Source: Stegostoma tigrinum
Taxonomy: Eukaryota
Assembly (NCBI RefSeq): GCF_030684315.1
Contig: NC_081399.1
Location: forward strand, 9,162,113 to 9,226,112
DNA: 64,000 nt
Direction: 5' to 3'
This document shows, one piece after another, positions 14,615-49,749 of the stretch (the stretch's first letter is position 1; each line of letters opens with the position of its first letter). The position numbers and the translations under genes were made by a program. The notes beneath the pieces are model-generated. The model had not been told where the DNA came from. It saw only the letters and a list, made by a program, of their open reading frames with translations, and did no database searches.

Positions 14615-16789
14615 TCTACATCGCCGAGGCCAGACGCCAACTCTCCGACACCATCTCCTACCGCCCCCTCGATCATGAACCCACACCCGAGCACCAAACC
14701 ATCATCTCCAACACCATTCACGACCTCATCACCTCAGGGGACCTCCCACCCACAGCCTCCAACCTCATTGTTCCCCAACCCCGCACGGCCCGTTTCTATC
14801 TCCTTCCCAAAATCCACAAACCTGCCTGCCCTGGTTGACCCATCGTCTCAGCCTGCTCCTGCCCCACCGAACTCATCTTCACCTATCTGGATTCCATTTT
14901 CTCCTCTTTGGTCCAGGAACTCCCCACCTACGTCCGTGACACCACCCACGCCCTCCACCTCCTCTAGGACTTCCAATTCCCTGGCCCCCAACACCTCATA
15001 TTCACCATGGACGTCCAGTCTCTATACACCTGCATTCCGCATGCAGATGGCCTCAAGGCCCTCCACTTCTTCCTGTCCCGCAGGCCCGACCAGTCCCCCT
15101 CCACCGACACTCTCATCCGCCTAGCTGAACTCGTCCTCACCCTCAACAACTTCTCTTTTGACTCCTCCCACTTCCTACAAACTAAAGGGGTGGCCATGGG
15201 CTATGCCTGCCTCTTTGTAGGTTACGCGGAACAGTCCCTCTTCCGCACCTACACAGGCCCCAAACCCCACCTCTTCCTCCGGGACATTGATGACTGTATC
15301 GGCGCCGCCTCTTGCACCCCAGAGGAGCTCGAACAGTTCATCCACTTCACCAACACCTTCCACCCCAACCTTCAGTTCACCTGGGCCATCTCCAGCACAT
15401 CCTTCACCTTCCTGGACCTCTCAGTCTCCATCTCAGGCAACCAGCTTGTAACTGATGTCCATTTCAAGCCCACCGACTCCCACAGCTACCTAGAATACAC
15501 CTCCTCCCACCCACCCTCCTGCAAAAATTCCATCCCCTATTCCCAATTCCCCTGCCTCAGCCGCATCTGCTCCCACGATAAGACATTCCACTCCCGCACA
15601 TCCCAGATGTCCAAGTTCTTGAAGGACTACAACTTTCCCCCCACGGTGATCGAGAACGCCCTTGACCGCGTCTCCCGTATTTCCCGCAACACATCCCTCA
15701 CACCCCGCCCCCGCCACAACCGCCCTAAGAGGATCCCCCTCGTTCTCACACAGCACCCTACCAACCTCCGGATACAACGCATCATCCTCCGACACTTTCG
15801 CCATCTACAATCCGACCCCACCACCCAAGACATTTTTCCATCCCCACTCTTGTCTGCTTTCCGGAGAGACCACTCTCTCCGTGACTCCCTTGTTCGCTCC
15901 ACACTGCCCTCCAACCCCACCACACCCGGCACCTTCCCCTGCAACCGCAGGAAATGCTACACTTGTCCCCACACCTCCTCCCTCACCCCTATCCCAGGCC
16001 CCAAGATGACATTCCACATTAAGCAGAGGCTCACCTGCACATCTGCCAATGTGGTATATTGCATCCACTGTACCCGGTGTGGCTTCCTCTACATTGGGGA
16101 AACCAAGCGGAGGCTTGGAGGCCGCTTTGCAGAACACCTCCGCTCAGTTCGCAACAAACAACTGCACCTCCCAGTCGCAAACCATTTCCACTGCCCCTCC
16201 CATTCTCTAGATGACATGTCCATCATGGGCCTCCTGCAGTGCCACAATGATGCCACCCCAAGGTTGCAGGAACAGCAACTCATATTCCGCCTGGGAACCC
16301 TGCAGCCTAATGGTATCAATGTGGACTTCACCAGTTTCAAAATCTCCCCTTCCCCTACTGCATCCCTAAATCAGCCCAGTTCGTCCCCTCCCCCCACTGC
16401 ACCACACAACCAGCCCAGCTCTTCCCCCCCACCCACTGCATCCCAAAACCAGTCCAACCTGTCTCTGCCTCCCTAACCGGTTCTTCCTCTCACCCATCCC
16501 TTCCTCCCACCCCAAGCCGTACCCCCATCTACCTACTAACCTCATCCCACCTCCTTGACCTGTCCGTCTTCCCTGGACTGACCTATCCCCTCCCTACCTC
16601 CCCACCTACACTCTCTCCACCTATCTTCTTTACTCTCCATCTTCGGTCCGCCCCCCCCTCTCTCCCTATTTATTCCAGTTCCCTCTCCCCATCCCCCTCT
16701 CTGATGAAGGGTCTAGGCCCGAAACGTCAGCTTTTGTGCTCCTGAGATGCTGCTTGGCCTGCTGTGTTCATCCAGCCTCACATTTTATT
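14615..16789 (+). mobile_element. Penelope-like retroelement (RT + Cys linker + GIY-YIG; Neptune-type), 5'-truncated, inactivated
   Basis: FYLLPKIHK, MDVQSLYT, GVAMG (with a deletion), DIDD in place of YIDD, CNRRKCYTC linker, VVYCIHC..LYIGETKR endonuclease. TSD ACCTTATCTTCC at 14603-14614 and 16790-16801. Confidence 0.93.
16701..16728 (+). ncRNA. Minimal type I hammerhead ribozyme motif in the PLE tail
   Basis: CTGATGA-A-GGGTCTAGGCCC-GAAAC-GTC: intact core, stem II and palindromic ACGT stem III. Confidence 0.75.
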
Positions 16790-17140
16790 ACCTTATCTTC
16801 CGCCTGGGCTTCCTATAGCCTGGAGGACTCAACGTTGAGGTCCCCAAATTTCAAATAACCTATCCAGTCATCCTCCAGATCCCATTCCAGAGCCATCTCC
16901 TCCCTTCCATTCCGCCTTCTGACCCTCCCTTCCAGCCACCAACCAGATTCATCCCTCTCATCGACCAACCAGATTACCATTTCACTACCCCCCCTCCCAC
17001 CCCTTTACCTACAGCTCCCCCTACCCCCACATCTAGTCTGAAGAAGTGTAGCACCCTAAACGTTGACTTCTCCTTTCTGCCAAATGCCGCCTGGCTTGCT
17101 GTGTTCTTCCAGCATCCTTACAGAATAGCAGACCTACTCT

Positions 17141-17770
17141 ATAATCTCAATCTCAGACCAAAAGCCCAAACTATGACTTTAACCCATATTCCTCACCAGA
17201 AACACTAAATCCCACACAGAACACAAATGCTTGACTATAACCCCAAATGTTCACCAGGAACCTTAATACATCACCATAACCCAAATCCCTGAATATGACC
17301 AGAACATCAATCCTTCATTATACCTCCAAATACTCACTGTAACTTTAATCCCTTATCCAACAAATCCCTGATCATTACCAGAACACCAATCCTTGAATAT
17401 AACCCCAATCCCTCATCATAACCTCAATACCTCACCATAACCAAATCCCTGACACTGATAAAAATAACAATCCTTGAATGTAACCCCAAACCTCCACTAT
17501 AACCTTAATCCTTTGCCATGATCCCAATCCCTGAACAGATCCCCTGACAATAACTCCAGACCCTGACCAAAACCCTAATCATTGACCATACTCCAACCCT
17601 TCACCAGATCCCAATCTTTCAATGAAACCGCAATCTCTGACCTTGGCCATACCCCAACGTCACCAGTCCCCAATCCCTCACTCTAACCTCAATCCTTCAC
17701 CATAAACTCAATCTCTGATTTTGATCATAACCCAGTTCCTCACCATAACAGCAATCACATTTCAGACCCT
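17141..17770. repeat. Degenerate ~19-bp C/A-rich satellite (CCATAACCCCAATCCCTGA-like)
   Basis: Loose tandem periodicity. Confidence 0.7.
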
Positions 17771-19626
17771 CACACTCCACGTAGCCCTCTTTCATCTCAG
17801 GTTCATCCTCCATTCAGACCTCTCCATTTCAGACCCTCACTGCTGGTTCCTCCCATCTCAGCTGCTACGAATTTTTCTGTGGCTATGAATGTGCTGGTTC
17901 CACCATCTCTCCCTGTCTGGATGATATCTTTCAGTGCAGTGTTTGCCAGGGTCAGAGAGGTGGAAGATACCTGACGAAGATGCATGCGAACAATCCATCC
18001 CATGACATCATAAGGATTGTTTCTGGAGCATAGACGCCAACATAGCTGGGTTGACCTCCTATTGCAAGACACGCGAATCCTCAGCAAAAAGCAAAAAAGA
18101 ATCATTGTCTATGAGTGAACAAATAACATCAATTCATGCAGGACTCCTTTAATCCTGTAGCACCCAATGAAACACATTCACAACCTATGAACTGATGACA
18201 GCTCCACTTCTGAATTGTGAACCTCCAGTGCTCAGGGAACATTGTCAACCACACCAATATGGTATCTGAGCCAAGCAGCAATGCCTCAGGTCTCTACCTG
18301 CCATGGAAAATCTGTGATCCTCAACCACTTGAGGATAGCCTTGTTGAAGATGTGACCACTTAATTTCTCCACAAGTGGAATGTGAGGAACAGCTCAAATT
18401 ATCTCTCAGGACAAGAATTCAGTGTGTAGGGCATCAACCTGACTGTGGCGATCACAGTCAGGTTGTTGCCCTACACACTGAACTCTTGACCCGAGAGATC
18501 CCTTCCTGGTCATTGCAAGCACTCACACTGAGTCAGCTGAAGCTGTTGGTTGAATCAAACTACTTCCCCAATCATACCAACTAAAACTTTACGGAAGGAG
18601 TATTCATTCCCCCCCACCCCACCATTGCCAATGCAGAGTAACAGAAAGGTCCAGGCCCCATCATCCTGTTGCTGAATAACACTGATCTTGACATCATCTG
18701 TTTGTACGTCTAACTTTGGTGGCTCCTACTCCCATCCTGGTTTCCAGTAATGTCCTGCACCGTCTTGCTTCACCTGGCCTTCAGTCAGACTGCCTACCAA
18801 TGCTGACCTGAGGGGAAGAAGTGAGAATGCTCTCAAAATCGTAGTGAAGCCTTCCCTAGCCCAACATTCCAACCAATCTCACTCAAGTCCTCTTCTTCAC
18901 AACTGAAAGTCTCTCCATGAGCTTCTTACTGAAAGGAAATGGACTGGGAAAATTGTTAGTCTGTATTTTGCTGGTATTTGTTTACTCAGTCTAGAATTTT
19001 ATTCAGAGGAAGTGTTTGTGATTCTCTCTCTCTCTCTCATTTCAGTTTTGCTTCCCACTTGGGCTGATGTGTGGTTGTGATTTACTGGATTGGTCCCAGA
19101 AATGTGGGATTTTCTTTCATGCAAAGGGACCGCAGCCATTGGGATTGTTTTCCTTAGAACGGGGAAAGCTAAGGATGATTGCATTGAGGCACCTAACATA
19201 AGGAAGGGTCTTTCTTGATTATGTTAATAGGGCAACACCATTTCCAATGACAGGAGGGTTAGGAACCAGAGGAACACATTGGAGAGAATCAGTAAATGAT
19301 CCCGAAGGGATGAGAGGAAATGTTTCGATCCAGTGAGTGGTTGTGATCGAGAATGTGGTACCTAAAAGGATGGTGGAAACAGATTCAGTGGGAACTTTCA
19401 AAAAGAGGGGATGCGTGGAAACATTCGAATGGGAGAAATTTGCAAATCAATGGGATAAGAGCAGAGAAATGTTGGGTTAATTAGAATACTCTACAACAGC
19501 CAGCATAGGCATGATGGGCTCAATGGCCTCTACCTGTTCTGGATAGTTCTATAAATTTAAATAATACCTTCCACATCTGAGCTTGTTTCTTTCATGCCCA
19601 CTGACTGAGTTCACTTGTTCCTTCAG

Positions 19627-22065: not shown

Positions 22066-22077
22066 TTAGAATTGTGA

Positions 22078-22210
22078 TCAGAGATAATGGGAGCTGCAGA
22101 TGCTGGAGAATCCGAGATAACAAAGTGTGAAGCGGGATGAACACAGCAGGCCAAGCGGCATCCCAGGAGCGCAAAAGCTGACGTTTCGGGCCGAGACCCT
22201 TCATCAGCTC
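22078..22210 (-). mobile_element. Short Penelope-tail element with hammerhead motif (22180-22207)
   Basis: Reverse complement CTGATGAAGGGTCTCGGCCCGAAACGTC followed by the same tail as 45762-45890. Confidence 0.85.
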
Positions 22211-22380
22211 TCTCATCAGCTAAACACTAATTTACAGATTTTACAGATGTGCCATTGAAATCATACTGTCCAAGTGCATAGTGGCCTGGTACGGAGGCTT
22301 CTCTGTCCAGGACCATGAGAAACTACAGAAAGTGATGTGCACAGCCCAGACTATCAGAGAAACCAACCTTCCATCCATGG

Positions 22381-23062
22381 TGTCCATGTACACAGAACCT
22401 TGAAAGTTGCCACCCAGGTTGACAGGGCTGTTAAGAAGGCATACAGTGTTTTTGCTTTTATTAATAGAGGGATCGAGTTCCGGAACCAAGAGGTTATGCT
22501 GCAGCTGTACAAAACTCTGGTGCGGCCGCACTTGGAGTATTGTATACAGTTCGGGTCACCGCATTATAAGAAGGATGTGGAAGCTTTGGAAAGGGTGCAG
22601 AGGAGATTTACTAGGATGTTGCCTGGTATGGAGGGAAGGTCTTATGAGGAAAGGCTGAGGGACTTGAGGCTGTTTTCATGAGAGAGAAGAAGGTTCAGAG
22701 GTGACTTAATTGAAACATATAAAATAATTAGAGGGTTAGATAGGGTGGCTAGGGAGAGCCTTTTTCCTAAGATGGTGATGGCGAGCACGAAGGGGCATAG
22801 CTTTAAATTGACGGCTGAAAGATATAGGACAGATGTCAGAGGTAGTTTCTTTACTCAGAGAGTAGTAAGGGAATGGAACACTTTGCCTGCAACGTAGTAG
22901 ATTCGCCAACTTTAAGTACATTTAAGTCGTCATTGAACAAGCATATGGACGTACATGGAATAGTGTAGGTTAGGTGGGCTTCAGATCGGCATGACAGGTC
23001 AACACAACATCGAGGGCCGAAGGGCCTGTTCTGTGCTGTAATGTTCTATGTTCTATGCTCTA
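22381..23062 (+). mobile_element. CR1 LINE 3' fragment
   Basis: LVRPHLEYCIQF..RVQRRFTRMLPG; (TTCTATG)n tail. Confidence 0.9.
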
Positions 23063-23091
23063 TGGACTCTACTTACATAGCTCGCTGCTGC

Positions 23092-26000
23092 GAATAGACA
23101 ATAGACAATAGGTGCAGGAGTAGGCCATTCGGCCCTTTGAGCCAGCACCACCATTCATTATGATCATGGCTGATCATCCACAATCAGTATCCTGTTCCTG
23201 CCTTATCCCCATAACCCTTAATTCCACTATGTTTAACAGCTCTATCCACCTCTTTCTTGAAAGTATCTAGAGAGGTGGCCTCCACTGCCTTCTGGGGCAG
23301 AGCATTCCATATATCCACCACTCTCTGGGTGAAGAAGTTTTTCCTCAACTCTGTTCTAAATGGCCTACCCCTTATTTTTAAACAGTGTCCTCTGGTTCTA
23401 GACTCACCCATCAGCGGAAACATGCTTCCTGCCTCCAGAGTGTCCAATCCCTTAATAATCTTATATGTCTCAATCAGATTCAGAAACAAAGAAACCAAGA
23501 AACCTACAGCACAGGAACAGGCCCTTTGGCCCTCCAAGCCTGCGCTGATCAAGATCCTCTGTCTAACCCGACATCTATTTTCTAACGGTCTGTGTCCATT
23601 TGTTCCCTGCCCATCCATGTACTTGTCCAAATATATCTTAAAAGTCGCTAACATGTCTGTGTCTACCACCTCCACTGGCAACCCGTTACAGACGCCCACC
23701 ACACTCTATGTAAAGAACTTTCCATGCATAGCTCCCTTAAACTTTCCTCCTCTCACTTTGAACTCATGACCCCTAGTAACTGAGTCCCCCACTCTGGGAA
23801 AAAGCTTTTTGCTATCCACCCTGTCTATACCCCTCATGATTTTGTCGACCTCAATCTGGTCCCCCCTCAATCTCCGTCTTTCTAATGAAAATAATCCTAG
23901 TCTATTCAACCTCTCTTCATAGCTAGCACCCTCCATACCAGGCAACATCCTGGTGAACCTCCTCTGCACACTCTCCAAAGCATCCACATCCTTTTGGTAA
24001 TGTGGTGACCAGAACTGTACACAGTACTCCAAATGTGGCCGAACCAAAGTCCTATACAACTGCAACATGACCTGCCAACTCTTGTACTCAATACCCCGCC
24101 CAATGAAGGAAAGCATGCCATATGCCTTCTTGATCACCCTATTGACCTGCGTTGTCACCTTCAGGGAACAATGGACCTGAACACCCAGATCTCTCTGTTC
24201 ATCAATTTTCCCCAGGATTTTTCCATTTATTGTATAGTTCGCCCTTGAATTTGATCTTCCAAAATGCATGACCTCGCATTTGCCTGGATTGAACTCCATC
24301 TGCCATTTATCTGCCCAACTCTCCAGTCTATCTATATTCTGCTGTAATCTCTGACAGTCCCCTTCACTATCTGCTACTCCACCAATCTTAGTGTCATCAG
24401 CAAACTTGCTGGCCAGGCCACCTACACCTTCCTCCAGATCATTTACATATATCACAAACAACAGTGGTCCCAGCACAGATCCCTGTGGAACACCACTGGT
24501 CACAGGTCTCCAATTTGAGAAACTCTCTTCTACTAGAACTCTCTGTTTCCTGTTGCCCAGCCAGTTTTTTATCCATCTAGCTAGCACACTCTCGACCCCA
24601 TGTGACTTCACTTTCTCCATCAGCCTGCCATGGGGAACCTTATCAAACACCTTACTGAAGCCCATGTATATGACATCTACAGCCTTTCCCTCATCAATCA
24701 ACTTTGTCACGTCCTCAAAGAATTCTATTAAGACATGACCTTCCCTGTACACAACCATGTTGCCTATCACTGATAAGCCCATTTTCTTCCAAATGGGAAT
24801 AGATCCTATCCCTCAGTATCTTCTCCAGTAGCTTCCCTACCCCTGACATCAGGCTCACTGGTCGATAATTACCTGGATTATCCTTGCTGCCCTTCTTAAA
24901 CAAGGGGACAACATTAGCAAGTCTCCAGTCCTCTGGGACCTCACCCGTGTCTAAGGATGCTGCAAAGATATCTGTTAAGGCCCTCGCTATTTCCTCTCTT
25001 GCTTCCCTCAGCAACCTGGGATAGATCCCATTCGGACCTGGGGACTTGTCCACCTTAATGTCTTTTAGGATACCCAACACTTCCTCCTTCCTTATGTCAA
25101 CTTGAACTAGAGTAAGCAAACATCTATCCCTAACCTCAACATCCATCATGTCCCTCTCCTTGGTGAATACTGATGCAAAGTACTCGTTAAGAATGTCACC
25201 CATTTTCTCTGACTCAGCGCATAACTTTCCTTCTTTGTCCTTAAGTGGGCCAATCCTTTCTCTAGTTACCCTCTTGCTCTTTATATATGAATAAAAGGCT
25301 TTGGGATTTTCCTTAACCATGTTTGCCAGTAATATCTCATTCCCTCTCATCCTTCTAAACTCAAGTGTATATAAGCCCAGTCGCTCCAATCTTTCAACAT
25401 ATGATAGTCCCGCCATTCTGGGAAATCACCTCATGAACCTACGCTGCACTCCCTCAATAGCCAGATTGTCCTTCCTCAAATTGGAAGACCAAAACTGCAC
25501 ACAATATTCCAGGTGCAGTCTCACCAGGGCCCTGTACAGCTGCAGAATGACCTCTTTGCTCCTATACTCAATTCCTTTTGTGATGAAGGCCAGCATGCCA
25601 TTAGCTTTCTTCACTGCCTGCTGTACCTGTATGCTTGCTTTCATTGACTGACGTACAAGAACACCTCGATCTTGTTGTACTTCCCCTTTACCTAACTTGA
25701 CTCCATTTAGATAGTAATCTGCCTTCCTGTTCTTGCCACCAAAGTGGATAAGCACACATTTATCCACATTAAACTGCATCTGCCATGCATCCGTCCATTC
25801 ACCGAGCCTGTCCAAGTCACCCTGTATTCTCATAACATCCTCCTCACATTTCACACTGCCACCCAGCTTTGTGTCATCAGCAAATTTGCTAATATTACTT
25901 TTAATGCCTTCGTCTATATCATTAACGTATATCGTAAACAGCTGCGGTCCCAGCACCGAACCTTGTGGTACCCCACTGGTCACTGCCTGCCATTTATCAC

Positions 26001-27257
26001 TACCCTTTGCTTCCTGTCAGCCAGCCAATTTTCAATCCAAGCCAGTATTTTTCCCCCGGTACCATTGCCCTAATTTTGCTCACTATCTCCTATGTGGGAC
26101 TTTATCAAAGGCTTTCTGAAAGTCCAGGTATACTACATTCACTGGTTCTCCCTTGTCCATCTTCATAGATATATCCTCAAAAAATTCCAGAAGATGAGTC
26201 AAGCACGATTTCCCCTTCGTAAATCCATGCTGACTCTGACCTATCCTGTTACTGCTATCCAAATGAGTTGTAATTTCATTTTTTATAATTGACTCCAGCA
26301 TCTTTCCCACCACTGACATCAGGTTAACCAGTCTATAATTCCCTGTTTTCTCTCTCCCTCCTTTCTTGAAAAATGGGACAACATTAGCCACCCTCCAATC
26401 CATAGGAACTGATCCTGAATCTATAGAACCTTGGAAAATAATTATGAACGCGTCCACAATTTCTAGAGCCACCTCCTTAAGTACCCTGGGATGCAGACCA
26501 TCAGGTCCCGGGGACTTATCAGCCTTCAGACCTAACAGTCTATCCAACACCATTTCCTGCCTAATATAAATACCCTTCAGTTCGTCCATTACCCTTGGTC
26601 CTCCAGCCACTACTGCATCTGGGAGATTGCTTGTGTCTTCCCTAGTGAAGACAGATCCAAAATACTATTCAACTCATCTGCCATTTCCCTGTTGCCCATA
26701 ATAAATTCACCCGTTTCTGACTTCAAGGGCCCAATTTTAGTCGTAACCATTTTTTTTCTTTTCACATACCTAAAAAAGCTTTTTTGGTCAGTTTTCCTTC
26801 ATACCTCATTTTTTCTCTGTGTATTGCCTTTTCAGTTATCCGCTGTTGCTCTTTAAAAGCTTCCCAGTCCTCCGGCTTCCCACTCATCTTTGCTATGTTA
26901 TACTTCTCTTTTATCTTTATACAGTCCTTAACTTCCCTTGTCAACCACGGCCGCCCCTGCCTCCCCTTAGGATCTTTCTTCCTCTTTGGAATGAACTGAT
27001 CCTGCACCTTCTGCATTATATCCAGAAATAACTGCCACTGTTGTTCCACTGCCATCCCTGTGAGGGTATTGTACCACTGAACTTTGGCCAGCTCCTCCCT
27101 CATAGCTCCATAGTTCCCTTTATTCAACTGCAATACTGACACTTCCGATTCTCCCTTCGCCCTCTCAAACTGCAGATTAAAACTTATCATATTATGGTCA
27201 CTACCTCCTAATGGCTCCTTTACTTCGAATTCCCTGATCAAATCCGGTTCGTTGCAC
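23092..27257 (-). mobile_element. CR1 LINE (5'-truncated) carrying a nested CR1
   Basis: KSPGPDG, YLDFQKAFDKV, GVPQGSVLGP, KFADD motifs; internal deletions. Confidence 0.9.
23482..25338 (-). mobile_element. Nested CR1 LINE (second subfamily)
   Basis: A second complete set of RT motifs (23706-25338) with its own 3' tail; the host sequence resumes at ~25339. Confidence 0.88.
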
Positions 27258-28559: not shown

Positions 28560-28940
28560 GAAGAGAAACAGAAGTTGCTGTAAAAGCTCAGCTGGTCTAG
28601 TAGCATCTGTGAAGAAGAATCAGAGTTAATGTTTCTGATCTGGTGACCCTTCCTCAGAACTGATGGTAGCTAGGAAAATGTCAGTTTAGATGCAGAACAT
28701 AGAGTGGTGGGAGGGGGTAAGAAGTAAATAATAGGTGAGAAGAAAGAGAGAGAAGAACAGTTAGACAAACAAAAGAGTTGATAACGATTTGGATAGGAGG
28801 GTGAATAGCTGTTAGTGAAGACACCAGACCTAAAACTTTAACTCTGATTTTTCCTGAAATGCTGCCGGAATTACTGAGCTTTTCCAGCAAATTCTGTTTT
28901 TGTTCCTGATTTACAGAATCTGCAGTTTTTTTTGGTTTTT
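28560..28940. mobile_element. Inverted pair of old Penelope-tail-like short elements
   Basis: Arms ~28563-28660 and ~28825-28935 are roughly complementary, with a degenerate CTGAGGAAGGGTCAC..GAAAC core. Related copies at ~29965-30090 and ~42063-42157. Confidence 0.6.
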
Positions 28941-29869
28941 AAATGAAGGACGGCTTAGTGACAGGATACCGGCCTCTGTGCAGTTATTTCGCGTCCTCAG
29001 CACTCTAACAGGACCCTCACATTCATTGTCCCTTCTCCAATTATGAGATCATGGTGCCTAATGGTCCCAGTATTTCTGTGTTAGTGTATAAAATTGCAAA
29101 AGGTTTTTTTTTGAGAACTTTCTCCTCCTTTTATCTCACTTTCATTATATCTGCCCTTCTTACCTTTAAACACACTTTCTCCTCCTCATCCTCTTGTCTA
29201 AAATGTTACCTTTTCTTTATGTTTATGTGACATAATCAATGCATCTTCTTGCAATCAGGAGTATTTATGAGATCAGTTACTTTACTGTCCCTTCAAACTA
29301 CCTTTGAATTTTACTTTCAGCTGTTCACCTTGCGAAGGCAACAATACCAACAATTCATCTCCCATTTTGAGCATTCTGGGTGATGAATGTTTATCTGCCC
29401 ATTCTCTTACTTTCATTTATGGAACTTCTAAATGTTCTCGTTCTGCTACCCTACTTATTACAGTCTTATGACTCCTTTGAGAAACATGGACTCAATCTAA
29501 CATTAAAGGTTCACCTTATCAAGTCAAGGGCTTCTCCCTAATCAGTTTCAAATGGACCTCAAATCACATGACCACAATCAATTCAATCGGATAAAATCCG
29601 GTAGATTCCTTTGAACCTCTGGTAGCAGATAATAAGAAAGTCAGCTGTTAGTCATGCTCTTGAAAGTCTGATGTTCTGCCCGATTGTGGATGATAGACTT
29701 TTGACTTTCATTGTTTATATCTAAACTATTGATTTCCTGGAAAATATTAAACAATGTTTTTAATTCAATTTAATCATTCAATTGTAAACAAAATTAAAAT
29801 TACAACTGTTAGGCTGTGTCTCAGTTGGTAGTCCATAATGAGTTTTAAAAAAACTTGTGTGCAGAAAAA

Positions 29870-30490
29870 TCAAAAATTGGAGCAGGATTTTATCAGACTG
29901 ATGCCTGGAATGACAAAGCTGCTATGTGAAGAGAGACTGGATTAGTTAGGATTATAATCACTGGAACAAAAACAATGTTGTTGGAAAAGCTCAGCAGGTC
30001 TGTGAAGAAGATATCAGAGTTAATATTTCAAGTCTGGTGACCCTTCCTCAGAACAGCCATTTCTGGGCATCTGCAGTTCTATTGGTTTTTATAATCACTG
30101 GAGTTTGGAAGAGAAGTGGTTGGTGGGGTACGCAGGGTCTCATAAAACTCTATGAGATTCTAACAGTACTGACAGGGTTAAGACAGGAAGGAAATTCCCA
30201 AAGATTAGGGTGACCAGTTTAAGGATATAGGTTATGCCGTTTAGAACTTAGATGAGAAAAATTTCTTTACCCGAGACTGATAAGCCTTTGAAACGATCAG
30301 CCATGAAAAGCGGTTGAGGCCAAAATATTGAATGTTTTCAAAAAGGAATTAGATATAGTTCTTAGGGATAAAGGAATCAAAAGGTGTGGGGAGAAAGTGG
30401 GAACAAGGTACTGAGTCAGTTGATGAGCTATTGCATTGAGTGGCGGAGCAGGCTAGAGGGCTAAACGGCCTACTCCTGCTCCTATTTTTC
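29870..30490 (+). mobile_element. Decayed CR1 3' end
   Basis: Similar to the other CR1 tails; interrupted by a short element. Confidence 0.7.
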
Positions 30491-35130: not shown

Positions 35131-35703
35131 TCTGAACAAGGCCTCACACCCAACATGCATTGTCTGACCTAAAATGTCACCTCTTCTTTACGCTGATAAA
35201 AACCTTTCGTTCTCTCAGGACCATGACTTGAAAGGATCAAAGGTGTGGTCCTCGATACCCGCATCGCCCCCAGTAATGCCTTTCTCTTTGCAGGTTTTGT
35301 GGAACATTCTTCTTCCAATCCTAATTACTTTGCCATCTGTTTCTGGTTCAGAGACAGGAAAACAGGACTACTGGACTTTCAAAATGGCTTTCAGCTCATC
35401 AGTTTTTTGCGTATACATATTAATCAATTAAAATCTTCTAACTGATTAAAGATTTAACAGCTTCTTAGGTTTGTTCGTACATCCTCATCAATGATGTAAA
35501 CCTTTTTTACCTCCAAATTCTGTATCTGATACTGTCTCTTTCACTTACACCTGAAGAAGGACTGAGGCTCTGAAGGCTTGTGTTTTCAAATAAACCTATT
35601 GACTATAATCTGGTGCCATGTGATTTCTGACCTCATCATAGGCTGTATTCAAATATGGACATTCTGGGTGTTCCAGAGATGTGGATCCAGAGGCTTACCT
35701 GTA

Positions 35704-37720
35704 GCCTGAGGTGCTGGGTGAGGAGGCCTGAGGAGGTGCTGGGTGAGGGGACCTGAGGAGGTGCTGGTTGAGGGGGCCTGAGGAGGTGCTGGGTGAGGGG
35801 GCCTGAGGAGGTGCTGGGTGAGGGGGCCTGAGGAAGTGCTGGGTGAGGAGGCCTGAGGAGGTGCTGTGTGAGGGGGCCTGAGGAGGTGCTGGGTGAGGAG
35901 GCCTGAGGAGGTGCTGGGTGAGGGGACCTGAGGAGGTGCTGGGTGAGGGGGCAAGAGGAGGAGCTGGGTGAGGAGGCCTGAGGAGGTGCTGGGTGAGGGG
36001 GCCTGAGGAGGTGCTGTGTGAGGGGGCCTGAGGAGGTGCTGGTTGAGGAGGCCTGAGGAGGTGCTGGGTGAGGGGGCCTGAGGAGGTGCTGGGTGAGGAG
36101 GCCTGAGGAGGTGCTGGGTGAGGAGGCCTGAGGAGGTGCTGGGTGAGGAAGCCCGAGGAGGTGCTGGGTGAGGGGGCAAGAGGAGGTGCTGGGTGAGGAG
36201 GCCTGAGGAGGTGCTGGTTGAGGGGGCCTGAGGAGGTGCTGGGTGAGGAGGCCTGAGGAGGTGCTGGTTGAGGGGGCCTGAGGAGGTGCTGGTTGAGGGG
36301 GCCTGAGGAGGTGCTGGGTGAGGGGGCCTGAGGAGGTGCTGTGTGAGGGGGCCTGAGGAGGTGCTGGTTGAGGGGGCCTGAGGAGGTGCTGGGTGAGGGG
36401 GCCTGAGGAGGTGCTGGTTGAGGGGGCCTGAGGAGGTGCTGGGTGAGGAGGCCTGAGGAGGTGCTGGTTGAGGGGGCCTGAGGAGGTGCTGGGTGAGGGG
36501 GCCTGAGGAGGTGCTGGGTGAGGAGGCCTGAGGAGGTGCTGGTTGAGGGGGCCTGAGGAGGTGCTGGGTGAGGGGGCCTGAGGAGGTGCTGGGTGAGGGG
36601 ACCTGAGGAGGTGCTGGGTGAGGAGGCCTGAGGAGGTGCTGGGTGAGGAGGCCTGAGGAGGTGCTGGGTGAGGGGGCCTGAGGAGGTGCTGGGTGAGGAG
36701 GCCTGAGGAGGTGCTGGGTGAGGGGGCCTGAGGAGGTGCTGGTTGAGGGGGCCTGAGGAGGTGCTGGGTGAGGAGGCCTGAGGAGGTGGTGGGTGAGGAG
36801 GCCTGAGGAGGTGCTGGGTGAGGAGGCCTGAGGAGGTGCTGGGTGAGGGGACCTGAGGAGGTGCTGGGTGAGGGGGCCTGAGGAGGTGCTGGGTGAGGGG
36901 GCCTGAGGAGGTGCTGGGTGAGGGGGCCTGAGGAGGTGCTGGTTGAGGGGGCCTGAGGAGGTGCTGGGTGAGGGGGCCTGAGGAGGTGCTGGGTGAGGAG
37001 GCCTGAGGAGGTGCTGGGTGAGGAGGCCTGAGGAGGTGCTGGGTGAGGGGACCTGAGGAGGTGCTGGGTGAGGGGGCCTGAGGAGGTGCTGGGTGAGGGG
37101 GCCTGAGGAGGTGCTGGTTGAGGGGGCCTGAGGAGGTGCTGGGTGAGGGGACCTGAGGAGGTGCTGGGTGAGGAGGCCTGAGGAGGTGCTGGGTGAGGGG
37201 GCCTGAGGAGGTGCTGGTTGAGGGGGCCTGAGGAGGTGCTGGGTGAGGGGACCTGAGGAGGTGCTGGGTGAGGAAGCCCGAGGAGGTGCTGGGTGAGGGG
37301 ACCTGAGGAGGTGCTGGGTGAGGGGGCCTGAGGAGGTGCTGGGTGAGGGGGCCTGAGGAGGTGCTGGTTGAGGGGGCCTGAGGAGGTGCTGGGTGAGGGG
37401 GCCTGAGGAGGTGCTGGGTGAGGGGGCCTGAGGAGGTGCTGGTTGAGGGGGCCTGAGGAGGTGCTGGGTGAGGGGGCCTGAGGAGGTGCTGGGTGAGGGG
37501 GCCTGAGGAGGTGCTGTGTGAGGGGGCCTGAGGAGGTGCTGGGTGAGGAGGCCTGAGGAGGTGCTGGTTGAGGGGGCCTGAGGAGGTGCTGGGTGAGGGG
37601 GCCTGAGGAGGTGCTGGGTGAGGGGGCCTGAGGAGGTGCTGGGTGAGGGGGCCTGAGGAGGTGCTGGGTGAGGGGGCCTGAGGAGGTGCTGGGTGAGGAA
37701 GCCCGAGGAGGTGCTGGGTG
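35704..37720. repeat. 25-bp G-rich minisatellite GCCTGAGGAGGTGCTGGGTGAGGGG (~80 copies)
   Basis: Constant 25-bp period with point variants. Confidence 0.97.
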
Positions 37721-38246
37721 ACATCGCAAGCTACAAGGTGAAGCAACGCCCCAACGCCCTGTGTTACTGACTGTATTTCTAATGGTGTTTACCCTGCATG
37801 CCTGGACTATAACTCAGCAACTGTTTTCTTGTAGAGTCCAGCTGCGTCCAGATATCACTTAGTAAATACACTCATCCAGTGTCCAACTGTATCTCCACTG
37901 ATACTCATTTGGTGTTTCCTCACGCTATCACATCTAAGAAAACATTTACGTTCACCTGATCAACTTGAAAGATGACAGACACCCTTCAAACAACAATGCG
38001 TCATCTTCACTAACATCAAGCAAAGTGAGAAAAAAAACTTTCCACCTTGTGGTCTGGACTTTTAACTTTTAGAATTTTGTTCGCCCTGCCTCTATATTTT
38101 TATCCACCTATTGCATATGTGTGAAACCATTCAACTTCTGTCTGTCTGAGTTGGGATCTGTGTGCGTGTATTTTGGGTTTTAAAGTTACAGTAATTAAGG
38201 TGCATTCATTAGAAACAGTTTTATTTCTGCTCCTGTTGAAGTTGTG

Positions 38247-39888
38247 CACTTCCTGCAGACTAAAGGGGTGGCCATGGGCACCCGCATGGGCCCCAGCTAT
38301 GCCTGCCTCTTTGTAGGTTACGTGGAACAGTCCCTCTTCCGCACCTACACAGGCCCCAAACCCCACCTCTTCCTCCGGTACATTGATGACTGTATCGGCG
38401 CCGCCTCTTGCTCCCAAGAGGAGCTCGAACAGTTCATCCACTTCACCAACACCTTCCACCCCAACCTTCAGTTCACCTGGGCCATCTCCAGCACATCCCT
38501 CACCTTCCTGGACCTCTCAGTCTCCATCTCAGGCAACCAGCTTGTAACTGATGTCCATTTCAAGCCCACCGACTCCCACAGCTACCTAGAATACACCTCC
38601 TCCCACCCACCCTCCTGCAAAAATTCCACCCCCTATTCCCAATTCCTCCGCCTTCGCCGCATCTGCTCCCACGATAAGACATTCCACTCCCACACATCAC
38701 AGATGTCCATGTTCTTCAAGGACCGCAACTTCCCCCCCACAGTGATCGAGAATGCCCTTGACCGCGTCTCCCGCATTTCCCGCAACACATCCCTCACACC
38801 CCGCCCCCGCCACAACCGCCCAAAGAGGATCCCCCTCGTTCTCACACCACCCCACCAACCTCCGGATACAACGCATCATCCTCCAACACTTCCGCCATCT
38901 ACAATCCGACCCCACCACCCAAAACATTTTTCCATCCCCACCCCTGTCTGCTTTCCGGAGATACCACACTCTCCGTGACTCCCTTGTTCGCTCCACACTG
39001 CCCTCCAACCCCACCACACCCGGCACCTTCCCCTGCAACCGCAGGAAATGCTACACTTGTCCCCACACCTCCTCCCTCACCCCTATCCCAGGCCCCAAGA
39101 TGACATTCCACATTAAGCAGAGGTTCACCTGCACATCTGCCAATGTGGTATACTGCATCCACTGTACCCGGTGTGGCTTCCTCTACATTGGGGAAACCAA
39201 GCGGAGGCTTGGGGACCACTTTGCAGAACACCTCCGCTTGGTTCGCAACAGACAACTGCACCTCCCAGTCGCAAACCATTTCCGCTCCCCCTCCCATTCT
39301 TTACATGACATGTCCATCATGGGTCTCCTGCAGTGCCACAATGATGCCACCCGAAGGTTGCAGGAACAGCAACTCATATTCCTCTTGGGAACCCTGCAGC
39401 CTAATGGTATCAATGTGGACTTCATCAGCTTCAAACTCTCCCCTTCCCGCACCGCATCCCAAAACCCGCCCAATTCGTCCCCTCCCCACACTGCACCACA
39501 CAACCAGCCCAGCTCTTCCCCTCCACCCACTGCATCCCAAAACCAGTCCAACCTGTCTCTGCCTCCCTAACGTGTTCTTCCTCTCACCCATCCCTTCCTC
39601 CCACCCCAAGCCGCACCCCCATCTCCTCCCTACTAACCTCATCCCACCTCCTTGACCTGTCCATCTTCCCTGGACTGACCTATCCCCTCCCTACCTCCCC
39701 ACCTATACTCTCTCCACCTATCTTCTTTTCTCTCCATCTTCGGTCCCCCTCCCCCTCTCTCCCTATTTATTCCAGAACCCTCACCCCATCCCTCTCTCTG
39801 ATGAAGGGTCTAGGCCTGAAACGTCAGCTTTTGTGCTCCTGAGATGCTGCTTGGCCTGCTGTGTTCATCCAGCCTCACATTTTTATTA
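38247..39888 (+). mobile_element. Penelope-like element, second copy (5'-truncated), hammerhead motif at 39798-39825
   Basis: GVAMGTRMGPSYA, RYIDD and GIY-YIG present; frameshift at ~38848; same family as 14615-16789. Confidence 0.93.
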
Positions 39889-41420
39889 ACTATGAGAAGG
39901 AGTTGGTCAAAGCAGGAGGGTGCTGTACTTAAATGTGTGAATATAAAAAACAAGGTAAATGAATTTGTAGAGTGTGAGGCAGTATTGTAAGATTGCCACT
40001 GCAGAGGTGGATGCCAGGAATCACTATCAGATGCCAAATGTTCAATCAATTTCTGTCATGCCACTGCAGTTACGAATATAACACAATGGCACTGTCGTCA
40101 TCATACATCTTGCAGGACTCACACTCAAAATATAAAAGGAGCTACAACTCTCAGCAGCTCACTGACATTTCATCGCAACAAGGAGAATGTGCACAGAGAC
40201 AGGGACTCAAGTGCAAATGGTGACTTCTTGAATGTAACTCATTTTTGAGTGCAGCCCTGCTCAAATGCTCTGGTCAGATTTCCTGGCCTCAACCAATGTG
40301 ACTGTTAACATCAAAAGGTTTTCAGCAGAAAGAAGCCACGATGCACATGATTGATGCTTCTCTTAAGCTGAACAGCATTGAGAGGCTTCATCTTAACACT
40401 CTAAGTGTTAATGCTAAATGATGGCTTAGTTATGAAAGAACTAGGTAACGAATGATGTTTGAATTAACTTAAGCTTGGAGAAGTCCAACCCACCAGATGT
40501 TACATATATTATGTTTGTGAATGGATCTGCTTCCCATTTTTGCCTCAATAGATTGAGTTTATGAACATAATCCCAGCTGCAATTGTATACAGCTTTGGTG
40601 AGACCAGACCTGGAGTACTGTGATTATTTTGCCTCATTAAAGAGGAAAGGATGTAACAATATTCTCTCAAGGGCGTAGATTGTCTCATGACATAATTCAA
40701 TTAGAAGAGGTGTACAGTCTCAGGAGTTTCGAAAAATATGAGGTGAACTCATTGTACAGAATGCACAGAACAGAGCAGATGTGCTGAATGTTCTCTCACT
40801 GCTGTAATAACTTTGTGACTCTCCATTTTAATGAAGAAGTTGGGTGTGGAGATATCCTGTCTGACACACAGGAGACAGCAAATGGGCTGAATGATCTGTT
40901 TCTGTGCTGGGAACTCTACGTCAGCCCCCCACAGACTGGGACAGAGAGGGAACAATTTTTCTCACCCATAGGACTGCTACTGCTGAGTGTAATTAGGATC
41001 TTTCCACAATGAGACTTAAAACAGACATATTGTCGTCCATCTGTGACCTACAGAAACAGACCATTCGGGCCAACAAGTTCTTGCTTGTAGTCATGTTGTA
41101 TTCTGGGGAGAGATTGATTGTTGAGGTTCGATGGTTTCATACATGTAAATATCATATGGTTTTGGATGTCTCTGGAGTTTAGAGGAATTTGAGGTGATGT
41201 CACAGAAACATGAAATTCTTATAGGGTTTGATGGAGTTGGTGGGGATGTTGAGTGTCTGTTTTATTCCCAACAAGAGAGCCTGGAACTGGGTAACAGGGA
41301 GGATGAAAAGGCAGTGGTTGCAGTATTAGGTAAGGGGTCATCGCTGATCACTATGATGAGGAAAAATATCTTCATCCATCAACAAGAAAACATTCATCAG
41401 CTAGTGAAGGTTACACTCAT

Positions 41421-41727: not shown

Positions 41728-42299
41728 CTGAGGGAACACAAGGATACAGTTAGTCAGTGTGGAACAAGGCAAGCTCAGTCATGGAAGGCAATATTACATA
41801 AATAGAAAACTCCCTGTTGAATACCTCAAGAAAGGTTCACAAAGAATTACTTCTGAACTGAAGCCCCTGATAACAATGAGAGAAATTGTGGCAAGTAACT
41901 AATGCAGTGGTTAAGTAAAGAGGAGAATCATTCTGCATTGTCCCATCAAATAGTCCCAGGACAGGGACAGCACAGAATTCAATACTACATTGTCCGTATC
42001 AAACATTCCCTGGAAAAGTACAGCACAGGGTTAAATACAGAGTAAATCTCCATGTGTACTGTAACAAAAACAGAAATTGTTGGAGAAATTCAGCAGGTCT
42101 GGCAGCATCAGTGAATAGAAAGCAGAGTTAATGTGTCAGGTTCAGTGACCCTTCAAAACAGAATATTCTACTCGTACTCATATTCTAGTACTTCCATCCT
42201 TATTAATATTTTAGTGATTCGTCACTGTTTTATGTATTCTTTCCAATCTTCTGACTTGCTGCCCATCTTTATAGAATTATATGTCTTCTCTTTGAGTTT

Positions 42300-45654: not shown

Positions 45655-45929
45655 ATACGGGGAATGCTCCGAGAGGCTCTACACAGCCTGGGGTACGGGG
45701 ATGGTATACTTGTCTAAGTAGGATACATTTTCTTTCAGATGCATACGTCTTTCCGTCTAACCTCTGATGAAGGGTCTAGGCCCGAAACGTCAGCTTTTGT
45801 GCTCCTGAGATGCTGCTTGGCCTACTGTGTTCATCCAGCTCCACACTTTGTTATCTTGGATTCTCCAGCATCTGCAGTTCCTATTATCTCTCCTCATTTT
45901 GCAGTCTGGTTACTTCCTCCTCTCTCTCG
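45655..45929 (+). promoter_or_regulatory. Probable gene B proximal promoter/5'UTR, interrupted by a short element
   Basis: Blocks CCGAGAGGCT, TTTCTTTCAGA and CGTCTTTCCG are shared with the gene A upstream region. ACTTCCTC (ETS/PU.1-type) at ~45912. Confidence 0.55.
45762..45890 (+). mobile_element. Short Penelope-tail element with intact hammerhead core (45764-45791)
   Basis: CTGATGAAGGGTCTAGGCCCGAAACGTC is identical to the PLE tail at 16701; absent from the paralogous gene A promoter. Confidence 0.88.
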
Positions 45930-45996
45930 ATGGCGATGTGTCATTTGAATCTGAGACGGGCTTGTGAGCTACTTATTATCTCTGCCTTCTGTGTTG
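45930..45996 (+). CDS. Gene B leader (signal peptide) exon
   Basis: MAMCHLNLRRACELLIISAFCV+G|GTGGGT, phase 1. Confidence 0.85.
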
Positions 45997-46352
45997 GTGG
46001 GTAACAATTTTTATATCCATTTTAATTTAAAGATCAGCTCGCACATGTCCTGAACCTTTCCACTGCACATACATGTAAAGACTATTCCGCCCACTGTGCT
46101 TATCGAACTGGAGGATTTAACCTGGCAAATTGTCTAAAATCCATTCCGTCTCAGCTTCTCCTTTATTCCCTGTCTCTCTGGCTCCACCCATGGAACACTA
46201 TAAGTTCCATCTTCAGCTCCATCACATTCAAATTCCTCATCCTTGATCACATCCTCCCTACGTAGGCTCAGCAAATAGGCTCTGTGTCATCTCAGGCCTG
46301 TGGTTTCTTGCTCTGCTTTGACCTGTTCATGCTGGACTAACTCTTCCATCAC

Positions 46353-46658
46353 TGGGGCAGCACAGTGGCTCAGTCGTTAGCACTGCAGCCTCAAAGTGCC
46401 AGGGACCCAGGTTTGATTCCAGCCTCGGGTAACTGTCTGTGTGGAGTTTGCACATTTCCCTGTGTCTGCGTGGGTTTCCTCCGGGTTTCTCCCACAGTCC
46501 AAAGACGTGCAGGTTAGGTGGATCAGCCATGCTAAATTGTCCATAGTGTTCAGGAGTGTGTGGGTTATAAGGGGATGGGTCTGGGTGGGATGCTGCAAGG
46601 GGCAGTGTGTGGACTTGTTGGGCCAAAGGGCCTGTTTCCACACTGTAGGGAATCTAAA
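46353..46658 (+). mobile_element. tRNA-derived SINE (HE1/V-SINE-like)
   Basis: A box GTGGCTCAGTCG, B box GGTTTGATTCC, central GTGGAGTTTGCAC..TGGGTTTCCTCCGGG, CR1-like tail. Confidence 0.85.
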
Positions 46659-46659
46659 T

Positions 46660-47645
46660 AGACCACATTAGTGAATGTGCAGGTGAACAGCTGTCTGATG
46701 TGGAAAGCTTTTTTTGGGGCCTGGGATGGAGGTGAGGTGGAAGGTGTAGGGGCAGGTGTAGCACTTCCTGTGGTTGCAGGGAAATGTGCCGGGGATGATG
46801 GAGCTAGTGGGGAGTGTGGAGTGGACAAGGGAGTCATAGAGAGTGGTCTCTCCGGAAGGCAGATAACGGTGGGGAGAGAAATATATCCTTCATAGTGGAG
46901 TCAGATTGCAGGTGGCAGAAGTGACAGATAATGATGTATTGAATCCGGAGGTTAATGGGGTGATATGTGAGGACACGGAGGATTCTGTCTTTACAGAGAG
47001 AGAGAGTTCTGTCTTTGTTTTCATTGCGAGGAGGGGGATGCGCTGTTCCCAATGTGGCCTCCTCTACATCTGTGAGACCAAACAGAGGCTTGGAGACTGC
47101 TTTGCAGAGACCTGTGTTGGGTTCACAATAAATGACAACACCTCTAGTTGCCAACCACTTCAACTCACCCTCCCACTCCCTGGACAACATGTCCATCCTG
47201 GGCCTCCTCCAGTATCACAACGATGCCACCCGGAAACTGAAAGAGCAGCACCTCATATCCTGCCTCGAGAGCCTACAATCCAATGGTCTCAATGTGGACT
47301 TTACTACCTTCAAAATCTCCCCAGTCCTGGCCTCATCCCATGACCAACCCTCCCCCTTATCCCTGCCTCCTTGATGTATCCATCGTCTCTCCCACCTATC
47401 CACTCTTCCAACCTCACTGACCAATCCCCACCACTGCCTATCTGCACTCACCTATCACCATCCACCTACCTTCCCCAGCCCAACCACCCCTCTGAGCCCC
47501 CTTCCCCTCCCCCATTTCTGAAGAAGGGTCCGGACCCGAAATGTCAGCTTTCCTGCTCCTCTGATGCTGCCTGGCCCGCTGTGCTCCTCCATCTCCAGAC
47601 TGTGTTATCTCAGAATCCAGCATTGGCAGCTCTTACCATCTCTCA
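46660..47645. mobile_element. Older Penelope fragment with 5' inversion (linker on -, GIY-YIG + tail on +); hammerhead-like motif at 47518-47545
   Basis: 46660-47020 matches the PLE linker in antisense; 47037-47645 matches the endonuclease and tail in sense. Confidence 0.8.
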
Positions 47646-47814
47646 GTCGGCAGGGCGCCTGGTCTCTGATGCAGAGGAGCACTCACAATGTGCATTCAAT
47701 TTCTGAACTGGCTCAGGTTTCCATTAAACTTCCTCATTGTTAACCTTGTCCCCCAGGTTAAAATACCACCAGTTATCATCCTCTCTCTCTCTCTCTCTCT
47801 CTCTATGAGGAGAG

Positions 47815-48535
47815 TCTTCACTTTGCATCTAACCCCGTGCTGTCCCTGTCCTGGGAGTGTCTGATGGGGGGGACAGTGTAGAGGGAGCTTTACTCCGTAT
47901 CTAACACCGTGCTGCCCCTGTCCCTGGGAGTGTCTGATGGGGGGACAGTGTAGAGGGAGCTTTACTCTGTACCTAACCCCGTGCTGCCCCTGTCCCTGGG
48001 AGTGTCTGATGGGGGGACAGTGTAGAGAGAGCTTTACTCTGTATCTAACCCCATGCTGTCCCTGTCCCTGGGAGTGTCTGATGGGGGGACAGTGTAGAGA
48101 GAGCTTTACTCTGTATCTAACCCCATGCTGTCCCTGTCCCTGGGAGTGTCTGATGGGGGGACAGTGTAGAGTGAGCTTTACTTTGTATCTAACCCCATGC
48201 TGTCCCTGTTCTAGGAGTGTCTGATGGGGGGACAGTGTAGAGGGAACTTTACTCCGTACCTAACCCCATGCTGCCCCTGTTCTGGAAGTGTTTGATGGGG
48301 ACAGTGTAGAGGGAGCTTTACTCTGTACCTAACCCCTGTGCTGCCCCTGTTCTGGAAGTGTTTGTTGGGGACAGTGTAGAGGGAGCTTTACTCCGTACCT
48401 AACCCCCGTACTGCCCCTGTTCTAGGAGTGTTTGATGGCGACAGTGTAGAGGGAGCTTTACTCCGTACCTAACCCTGTGCTGCCCCTGTTCTGGAAGTGT
48501 TTGATGGGAACAGTGTAGAGGGAGCTTGACTCTGC
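47815..48535. repeat. ~70-bp dispersed satellite (TATCTAACCCCGTGCTGTCCCTGTCCTGGGAGTGTTTGATGGGGACAGTGTAGAGGGAGCTTTACTC)
   Basis: About 10 tandem units. Also seen at ~41940-42060, 44495-44650, 55150-55540, 55870-56025 and, degenerate, 56730-57150. Confidence 0.92.
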
Positions 48536-48638
48536 AATGATTAACTTGCCTGATTTCTGTACATTGTATCAATAATTAGATCCAAAGCAATTCTTGTCTT
48601 GTTCCACACTGACTGACCGTGTCCTCTTGTTCCCTCAG

Positions 48639-48959
48639 GTCAGAGTCAGTCCTTATATCTGCCTGTGAATGGATCCCTGGGCCAGTCGGTCTCCCTACCT
48701 GTAGAGGTGCCAAACAATACGACGGTTTCTGAGGTTAGCTGGACACAATCTTCAACCAAAACCAAAATTGTTGGATTGGCAAGAGGCAGCATTGAATATT
48801 TTGGCAGTGAAGAGTACAAGAAACGGATATATTTTCATCCTGGGAACTTCAATCTCCAAATCAGTGACTTACGGAGAGAGGATACTGGGCAATATGAGGT
48901 AACTGTAACTGTAACTTCAGGAAAACAAACATTTGAGACAGTTCAACTGGATGTTTACG
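48639..48959 (+). CDS. CD2/SLAM-family gene B, IgV exon
   Basis: Acceptor ttgttccctcag|GT and donor TACG|GTGAGT, phase 1/1. VNGSLGQSVSLP..EVSW..NLQISDLRREDTGQYEVTV..LDVY; no Cys. Confidence 0.93.
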
Positions 48960-49481
48960 GTGAGTAAAACTATCGAACCTGCCTTGCTTTCACCTCTTAT
49001 GGACCCTGTTTCATGATGGGGGGAGGTGATTTCCTAGTGGTATTATCACAAGAGCGATAATTCAGACCCGGGTTCGAATTCCACAAACTTCTGGAATTAA
49101 GTCTAATGATGATCGGGAAACCATAGCGAATTGTCTGAAAAACCCATATTCGCTAATGTCTTTCTGTGATAACAAGGTGTGGAGCTGGACGAACACAGCA
49201 GTCCAGGGCAATGTGCCACTTTTAATTACCTGGAATGATCCTGCCATTATCTCTCTGCCTGTATATTCTGTGCCTGTGTGCCTCCCTCCACTTCACCTGA
49301 CAAATGCTTGTGATGTTAAGCAAACCTGTTGGATTATAACGTGATGCGATGGGACTTCAGATTCTGGGTTTTCCATGTTTTACTAGGATCGTCTGGTCTC
49401 AGACGACCAGCTCCTTGCTCCTGGGGCTGGACATAAAGGAGACTGGGGTCCCAACCCCCAGGAACAGAAAAGGTTAAGGGA

Positions 49482-49749
49482 CAGACAGTGGGAACTGCAG
49501 ATGCTGGAGAATCTGAGATAACAAGGTGTGGAGCTGGATTAACACAGTAGGCCAAGCAGCATCAGAGGAGCAGGAAGACTGACGTTTCGGGTCTAGACCC
49601 TTCTTCAGAAATGGGGTCTTTCTGGAGAAGAGTCTAGACCCGAAACGTCAGCTTTCCTGTTCCTCTGATGCTGCTTGACCTGCTGTGTTCCTCCAGCTCC
49701 ACACTGTGTTATCTCGGATTGCCCAGCATCTGCAGCTCCTGCTGTCTCT
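49482..49749. mobile_element. Head-to-head pair of Penelope-tail short elements forming a ~128-bp-arm palindrome
   Basis: Arms ~49482-49610 and ~49620-49749. Hammerhead cores at 49581-49608 (-, intact) and 49622-49649 (+, CTGGAGA mutant). Confidence 0.88.

Follow-up and report, generated by a model that had tools for sequence, protein, structure and literature searches.

Cores and coding fragments in the window

We analyzed a 64,000-nucleotide (nt) stretch of the Stegostoma tigrinum genome, here called the window (GCF_030684315.1, NC_081399.1, positions 9,162,113 to 9,226,112, forward strand), which contains fragments of a Penelope-like element (PLE) and seven short cores of the minimal hammerhead ribozyme type. 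All seven cores placed by an initial annotation of this DNA are present, with C3 at 16701+, 39798+, 45764+, 47518+, 49608- (49581-49608), 22207- (22180-22207), and 49622+. A strict core pattern matched five times in the window against 0.00 across 100 shuffles, and a relaxed minimal-hammerhead descriptor matched seven times against a shuffle mean of 0.03 (maximum 1, also 100 shuffles). The relaxed matches comprise six of the seven cores plus 30051-, and 49622 fails. The annotation had proposed a genome-wide check with hammerhead models; run on the window, it succeeded with the descriptor but not with Rfam, as a scan at E <= 1 returned no hammerhead family and five microRNA-type chance matches. 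A motif scan of metagenome contigs and a PDB sequence search gave no matches, and ARAGORN found no tRNA.

The seven copies are less uniform than first described. Only 16701, 45764, 49608, and 22207 are letter perfect. Besides 49622, already flagged as mutant (A6>G plus a mismatch in stem II), 39798 carries C11.1>U, making a G-U pair at the base of stem II, and 47518 carries C15.2>U (U-G), with which the CpG of the palindrome is gone. The motif CUGANGA plus GAAA-N-N-U-H with a palindromic 15.2-16.2 is exact in 16701, 39798, 45764, 49608, and 22207. An extra A lies between positions 9 and 10.1 in all seven cores, and stem II has 4 bp in six. The helix I of about 2 bp noted earlier holds for six copies (CU/AG in 16701) but is 0 bp in 22207. 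Stem II had been described as staying paired while its center varies; differences among nine window rows are indeed one-sided or in the loop, but 49622 has its mismatch, 39798 its G-U, and no change is two-sided.

Fragments of PLEs that encode reverse transcriptase (RT) and GIY-YIG endonuclease (EN) terminate in cores 16701, 39798, and 47518 on their 3' side, in agreement with the annotated placement of minimal type I hammerheads with a palindromic helix III on Penelope ends (3/7 cores; Table 1). The longest open reading frame (ORF) in the window matches GIY-YIG at E 0.0012, below the cutoff, and has no Pfam RT match. This ORF is 53% identical over 582 amino acids to a related protein (P0006), and its relatives at E < 1e-100 bear PF00078 and PF01541. 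The proteins closest to the window PLE are from Stegostoma (90%) and Rhincodon (85%), followed by marine-invertebrate-type proteins at about 50% with RT and GIY-YIG labels. The linker that joins RT to EN reads CNRRKCYTC (C-x4-C-x2-C), which is of the Neptune/Nematis type. The window PLE copies are truncated and broken.

Table 1. Hammerhead cores, PLE fragments, and pseudo-long terminal repeat (pLTR) stubs in the window (UTR, untranslated region)
Position	Strand	Feature	Basis
14614..16794	+	5'-truncated PLE: RT, C-x4-C-x2-C linker, GIY-YIG, 3' UTR, pLTR without tail	tblastn to relatives from 14614
16701..16728	+	Minimal hammerhead core, intact, with a 2-bp helix I (CU/AG); cut predicted after 16728	strict pattern, descriptor
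38247..39891	+	Second 5'-truncated PLE, 94% identical to the 14614..16794 copy, tail-less; core 39798-39825 (C11.1>U)	
46657..47644		Older PLE fragment, in which a minus-strand (inverted) coding piece at ~46657-47121 adjoins the plus-strand EN end, 3' UTR, core 47518-47545 (C15.2>U), and tail	
45762..45891	+	Tailed solo pLTR stub whose core (45764-45791) is intact; begins 2 nt before C3; target duplication not found	
22074..22207	-	Tailed solo pLTR stub; core 22180-22207 intact but lacking helix I; begins at C3	
49479..49616	-	Left arm of head-to-head pair, with tail; intact core 49581-49608; begins 8 nt before C3	
49619..49749	+	Right arm of head-to-head pair, with tail; mutant core 49622-49649 (A6>G, stem II mismatch); begins 3 nt before C3	
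9005..9113		Core-less two-armed insert, same family: tail-less stub (minus) plus inverted tail; 14-bp target duplications 9005-9018, 9100-9113	
49163..49207	-	Core-less pLTR stub	
29952..30102	-	Two-armed insert of the second tail family between 14-bp target duplications; core 30022-30051 has decayed, with a 3-bp helix I and an inverted tail on the upstream side	
28560..28665	-	Copy of the second tail family; core 28628-28657 has decayed, with a 4-bp helix I (AGUU/AACU)	
42024..42168	-	Much-decayed copy of the second tail family, absent from the initial annotation	nhmmer (42154-)
28801..28949	+	Much-decayed, tailed copy of the second tail family, absent from the initial annotation	nhmmer (28822+)
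35551..35579	+	Third family: GAAG for GAAA, GC palindrome, helix I 4 bp (ACAC/GUGU)	direct sequence reading
17038..17116	+	Decayed core (TAAA for GAAA) plus pLTR box after a pyrimidine-rich stretch	

Short copies in the window and genome-wide

The four other cores lie in 128- to 138-bp stubs of the PLE end. The expectation of several solo copies of about 130 bp starting near the core fits the four stubs in their starts, at -2 (45764), 0 (22207), -8 (49608), and -3 (49622) relative to C3, but just 45764 and 22207 are truly solo; 49608- and 49622+ form one head-to-head insertion. Because the starts fall at -8 to 0 and not at the cut (+28), the stubs appear to have been copied from uncut RNA. The cores of the head-to-head pair are on opposite strands, so that no dimer is possible in one transcript. 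On the 3' side, copies end at one of two fixed positions, about 93 or 128 nt past C3, which differ by a 35-nt tail. The tail is absent in 16701 and 39798, which stop at the first end, and present in the other five of the seven.

Over 79 nt, the seven copies are 77-99% identical in pairs, too few for a tree, and young stubs are 91-96% identical to the ORF-bearing copies. Copy sizes in the same family grade from 45 bp up to 2.2 kb. Of the window's 18 tandem-array rows, not one includes a core, and the nearest near-intact cores on the same strand lie 1754 nt apart. Stubs of the same kind occur in at least two unrelated tail families. The degenerate copies noted earlier at ~17037, 28630-28660, 30025-30052, and 35551 are real but belong to these other families. 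A box at 16746-16776, some 20-50 nt past the cut (GATGCTGC..CCTGCTG..TCCAGC), is conserved across the shark tail families but not in distant relatives; it is a candidate protein-binding site.

We aligned contigs from four sequencing runs to 16495-16794; run X5 is from another organism, and run X16 is a bisulfite run. From run X1, 125,308 contig pieces align. In the bisulfite data, 1,938 million letters give a depth of about 25,000 across the 3' UTR, which corresponds to a copy number of roughly 8 x 10^4, assuming a genome of about 3 Gb. Such a number fits two copies of this kind per 64 kb, and the locus is not visibly enriched.

The largest pile of loose ends among those listed is at 16700, with 959 contigs in X1 and 281 in X5; run X15 has 25. 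Flanks at this pile are unrelated (agreement 0.37-0.42). A pile shared across runs with unrelated flanks suggests that starting at the core is a general feature. A single extra G is present in each of two joints, which reach 16697 and 16699 (4 and 2 nt before C3). We discarded 5,555 loose ends at 16702 in X16 as a bisulfite artifact.

A second class of joints connects the tail-less 3' end to 16729, the first base past the predicted cut. Among the joints listed (12 of 138), five spacers of this class have a summed depth of about 940, compared with 52 for joints to 16739 and 38 for joints to 16746, and run X15 contributes one more joint at 16729. A head-to-tail join is the natural reading; it would mean that cut RNA was copied, perhaps in a hundred of the ~10^5 copies. 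No tandem junction at the cut site was found in the window or among the related-locus matches listed.

Predicted fold and proposed origin of the short copies

The shark-family motif is predicted to fold mostly inactive. The monomer is predicted as a mis-registered hairpin, CUGA(UG):(CG)UCAG, with probability 0.74-0.96. A double-hammerhead fold lies 15-19 kcal/mol above two free monomers in the shark family and 1-14 kcal/mol above them in ten relatives, in energies that omit contacts within the catalytic core itself. Stem II plus its loop is a perfect 12-nt palindrome in two copies (47526-47537, 49589-49600), so that the dimer is predicted to pair via stem II (-33 to -38 kcal/mol) and not as a double hammerhead. 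The ribozyme is likely inert in the dispersed copies. These have no partner, and some have no helix I or have lost core bases; the ribozyme would matter, if at all, in the parent element.

Distant relatives have a stronger form of the motif. We fetched related PLE loci by protein match alone and kept 80 of 334, among which 33 extend to the end of the ORF and 30 have at least 150 nt past it. An exact sense-strand core lies 95-303 nt downstream of the ORF in 14 of these 30 loci (two pairs, L001/L002 and L069/L071, look like one element each), and an antisense-strand core in none. Five more have a core with one mismatch, and 11 have no core. Helix I is 3-5 bp in 13 of the 14. We aligned four window copies with ten related ones, all picked because they possess a core. 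In these 14 selected rows, the 16 conserved columns are confined to the core and the stem II base, and each of the four helix I pairs shows two-sided change (29 cells, a level that none of 500 shuffles reached, although related rows inflate the figure). The conserved core columns and two-sided helix I changes suggest that the lineage keeps the hammerhead fold. Of that lineage, the shark family has the weakest form.

The relatives share other features with the shark copies. They likewise have two 3' ends, at about +81 to +101 and +133 to +139, and L069 contains a head-to-head palindrome with arms starting at about -9 and +2. One relative is full length (L004, 866-4132), with two direct 201-bp pLTRs, cores at 984 and 4050, and a helix I of 4 bp. 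Its long ORF begins well past the core.

We propose, with a probability of about 0.8, that the cores are the pLTR ends of a high-copy PLE and that the short copies are truncated insertions made by the element's own enzymes, not a separate retrozyme family. The PLE endonuclease would cut both strands, and reverse transcription would begin inside the pLTR at one of two sites, as it does in vitro for the anole element PAc. These two start sites, as in PAc, would account for the optional 35-nt tail. Uncut RNA would then be copied through the core to a 5' end just before CUGA; that this end is the start of the transcript is a tentative identification, with the odds slightly against it. Priming on both strands would yield the head-to-head palindromic inserts. 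The ribozyme would be selected in active parent elements, where folding would require a partner and probably the PLE protein; a minor share of insertions may derive from cut RNA.

Several observations weigh against this proposal. A clear target duplication was absent in 11 of 13 window inserts tested; in the two that have one, 9005-9113 and 29952-30102, 14-bp duplications enclose a tail-less arm plus an inverted tail, an anatomy that fits the proposal. The pile at 16700 may partly come from older subfamilies with different upstream letters, and opposite-strand joints at 16702 come mostly from the bisulfite run, whose conversion breaks alignments there. Most inverted or extra arms in relatives start away from the core (-62, -59, -46, -24, +14). 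A short master element mobilized in trans is also compatible with the data, and in a rotifer pLTRs alone sufficed for mobilization.

The fixed 5' start might also be a hot spot for stalling or strand joining, caused by the CUGAUG:CGUCAG hairpin or by CTGA/TCAG complementarity of two complementary DNAs (cDNAs), with synthesis ending at the hairpin base; we rate this as possible, though it is the less probable account. That hairpin is the predicted monomer fold, copy 22207 begins exactly at C3 with a flank that lengthens it, and head-to-head joints cluster around the core. A stalled enzyme would, however, be expected to stop where it first encounters the hairpin, at the 3' foot, and the starts at -2 to -8 lie beyond it. 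Copied caps leave an extra G, as is known from LINE-1, and the extra G at the 16697 and 16699 joints is a candidate for such a copied cap.

Somewhat more doubtful is the view that the shark-family hammerhead is a dead relic whose core persists just because the copies are young. It is favored by the helix I of 2 bp, under the published descriptor minimum of 3, and by the energy gap of the double hammerhead relative to that of the ten relatives. PAc insertion in vitro is independent of cleavage, no RNA ends were reported at the PAc cut (PMC11167929), and eight of nine Xenopus dimers failed to cleave. Against a relic, core letters differ less often than tail letters among the seven copies (1/77 versus 34/343, p 0.011), the excess conservation that the initial annotation had asked about, but the contrast weakens to p 0.078 when counted by columns, and the copies had been picked by their cores. 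A genome-wide version of this comparison, in which G>A in X1 was 0.44% for G5, 0.66% for G8, and 1.0-2.2% for eleven Gs farther downstream (G16744 omitted as a subfamily marker), was discarded because end mismatches are clipped and the figures cover 40 of 121 rows. In addition, the two helix I pairs persist as CU/AG or UU/AG among window copies, the 16729 joints resume at the cut base, and helix I variants of 2 bp have been published, of which the extended Drosophila virilis form cleaved weakly (PMC4209133).

The opposite extreme, in which most stubs run from two internal RT starts to a capped transcript start at the first base of the ribozyme and rare partial tandems restart at the predicted cut, would provide genomic evidence that a hammerhead with a 2-bp helix I, although predicted to misfold by itself, cuts in vivo, probably via a PLE protein, and that cut RNA is reverse-transcribed; we hold this full account to be unlikely as a whole.

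A distinct non-autonomous, retrozyme-like element of about 130 nt, starting at the hammerhead, self-transcribed, and spread by PLE proteins, as the initial annotation had proposed, is improbable: four copies are uniform in length and start, ends pile up at 16700, contig depth in X1 is about 4.6-fold higher over the pLTR than adjacent upstream (26.4M versus 5.7M summed), and retrozymes are reported to derive from pLTRs, but the window has no tandem unit, ends do not fall at the cut, young stubs resemble ORF-bearing copies within a graded size series, the same stubs occur in unrelated tail families, 22207 has no helix I, three of the seven cores end PLE fragments, and the short copies bear the signature of truncated PLEs.

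Surrounding locus and comparison with known systems

The window contains two divergent genes, each with an immunoglobulin (Ig) V-set and a C2-type exon, at 1076-1402 (-) and 2259-2756 (-) and at 48617-48967 (+) and 54815-55129 (+). Weak SLAM and 2B4 matches, below the cutoff, suggest CD2/SLAM-like receptors. In the plus-strand gene, the 49581/49622 head-to-head pair lies in the interval that separates the V exon from the C2 exon. The idea of an immune locus is weakly borne out; the family said to populate it is very high-copy and not visibly enriched there.

Repeats of other kinds are abundant. At 3604-7216, degenerate 6-bp repeats (GGTTAG/GGGTTG), with gaps in the assembly, extend over about 3.6 kb and resemble interstitial telomere-like sequence. 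Long minisatellites occupy 9754-12554 (16-bp unit), 35708-37721 (25 bp), 58477-61429 (82 bp), 47829-48534 (72 bp), and 55152-55537 (70 bp); the 72- and 70-bp arrays have one common unit and flank exons of the plus-strand Ig gene. Nested RT fragments of the long interspersed nuclear element (LINE) type and a broken RNase H piece of an LTR retrotransposon lie at 22241-27277, 61509-63204, and 33371-33838, with PF00078 at 61512-62591. A near-perfect 109-nt hairpin at 18396-18504, with a weak microRNA-model score, is probably a small fold-back element.

Much of what we describe is already known from minimal hammerhead ribozymes (min-HHRs): the motif, solo copies, opposite-strand pairs, and 2-bp helix I variants (PMC4209133). 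The published consensus is CUGANGAH-G..C-GAAAN-palindrome-NUH, with an extra base between 9 and 10.1 and a G10.1-C11.1 pair that closes a helix II of 3 bp or more (Cervera and De la Pena, 2014, PMC4209133). The shark cores fit it, and the Acropora Neptune row of Fig. S3 in that paper has nearly the same motif. Min-HHRs there are mostly solo copies and opposite-strand pairs, ascribed to truncated PLEs. The descriptor requires a helix I of at least 3 bp, and the same paper files 2-bp variants in the family (Culex, three Drosophila rows, Oikopleura). The shark cores fall below the descriptor as such a short-helix variant, unlike the other tail families of the window, with 3-4 bp. No cartilaginous fish is among the Fig. 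S3 rows as read. Our finding extends the 2014 description to a shark genome and explains a common repeat. A literature search, whose coverage lay outside subscription journals, Repbase, and supplements, listed nothing on hammerheads of shark PLEs, on the fixed start, or on junctions at the cut site.

The closest mechanistic parallel is PAc, a Poseidon element of Anolis carolinensis, which has two internal RT starts 111-118 nt from the AUG in its hammerhead that produce its tail; PAc insertion involves cutting and extension of both strands and a template of mainly uncut RNA, and its ribozyme requires protein to cut (PMC11167929). Likewise, two RT starts about 110-120 nt after the hammerhead would explain the shark tail. 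Unlike PAc, the shark element has a zinc-finger-like linker of the Neptune/Nematis type, and the frame opened by the AUG of its core ends after 13 codons. A CX2-5CxxC linker between RT and EN marks Neptune and is shared with Nematis (PMC8557442); the window ORF has it, a feature compatible with either clade. Insertions of EN-bearing (EN+) PLEs have an inverted pLTR, an optional 31- to 40-bp tail (30-40 bp in PMC8557442), target duplications, and solo pLTRs (PMC3846280, PMC8557442). The shark copies share head-to-head arms, optional tail, target duplication, and solo pLTRs, but are miniatures of 80-270 bp with 14-bp duplications, and no fixed start at the core is known to us from those descriptions.

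What PLE hammerheads do is still described as unclear (PMC8557442). Should the fixed start and the junctions at the cut site prove sound, the ~10^5 copies would form a large natural record against which to test the position of transcript starts, priming on both strands, and possible ribozyme cutting in cells. The definition of retrozymes calls for tandem units that each carry a hammerhead (PMC7229834; bioRxiv 10.64898/2026.07.22.740005), and non-LTR retrozymes have been reported in one chondrichthyan (bioRxiv 10.64898/2026.07.22.740005). We rejected this identity for the window copies, based on the core-free tandem rows, the 2-bp helix I, and the Rfam result. The shark copies resemble non-LTR retrozymes in having a type I hammerhead, in being non-coding, and in their relation to PLE pLTRs. 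However, non-LTR retrozymes are tandem, usually have a canonical hammerhead (6-bp helix I, loop 1-loop 2 contact), and are expressed as circles, whereas the shark copies are single units with a helix I of 2 bp.

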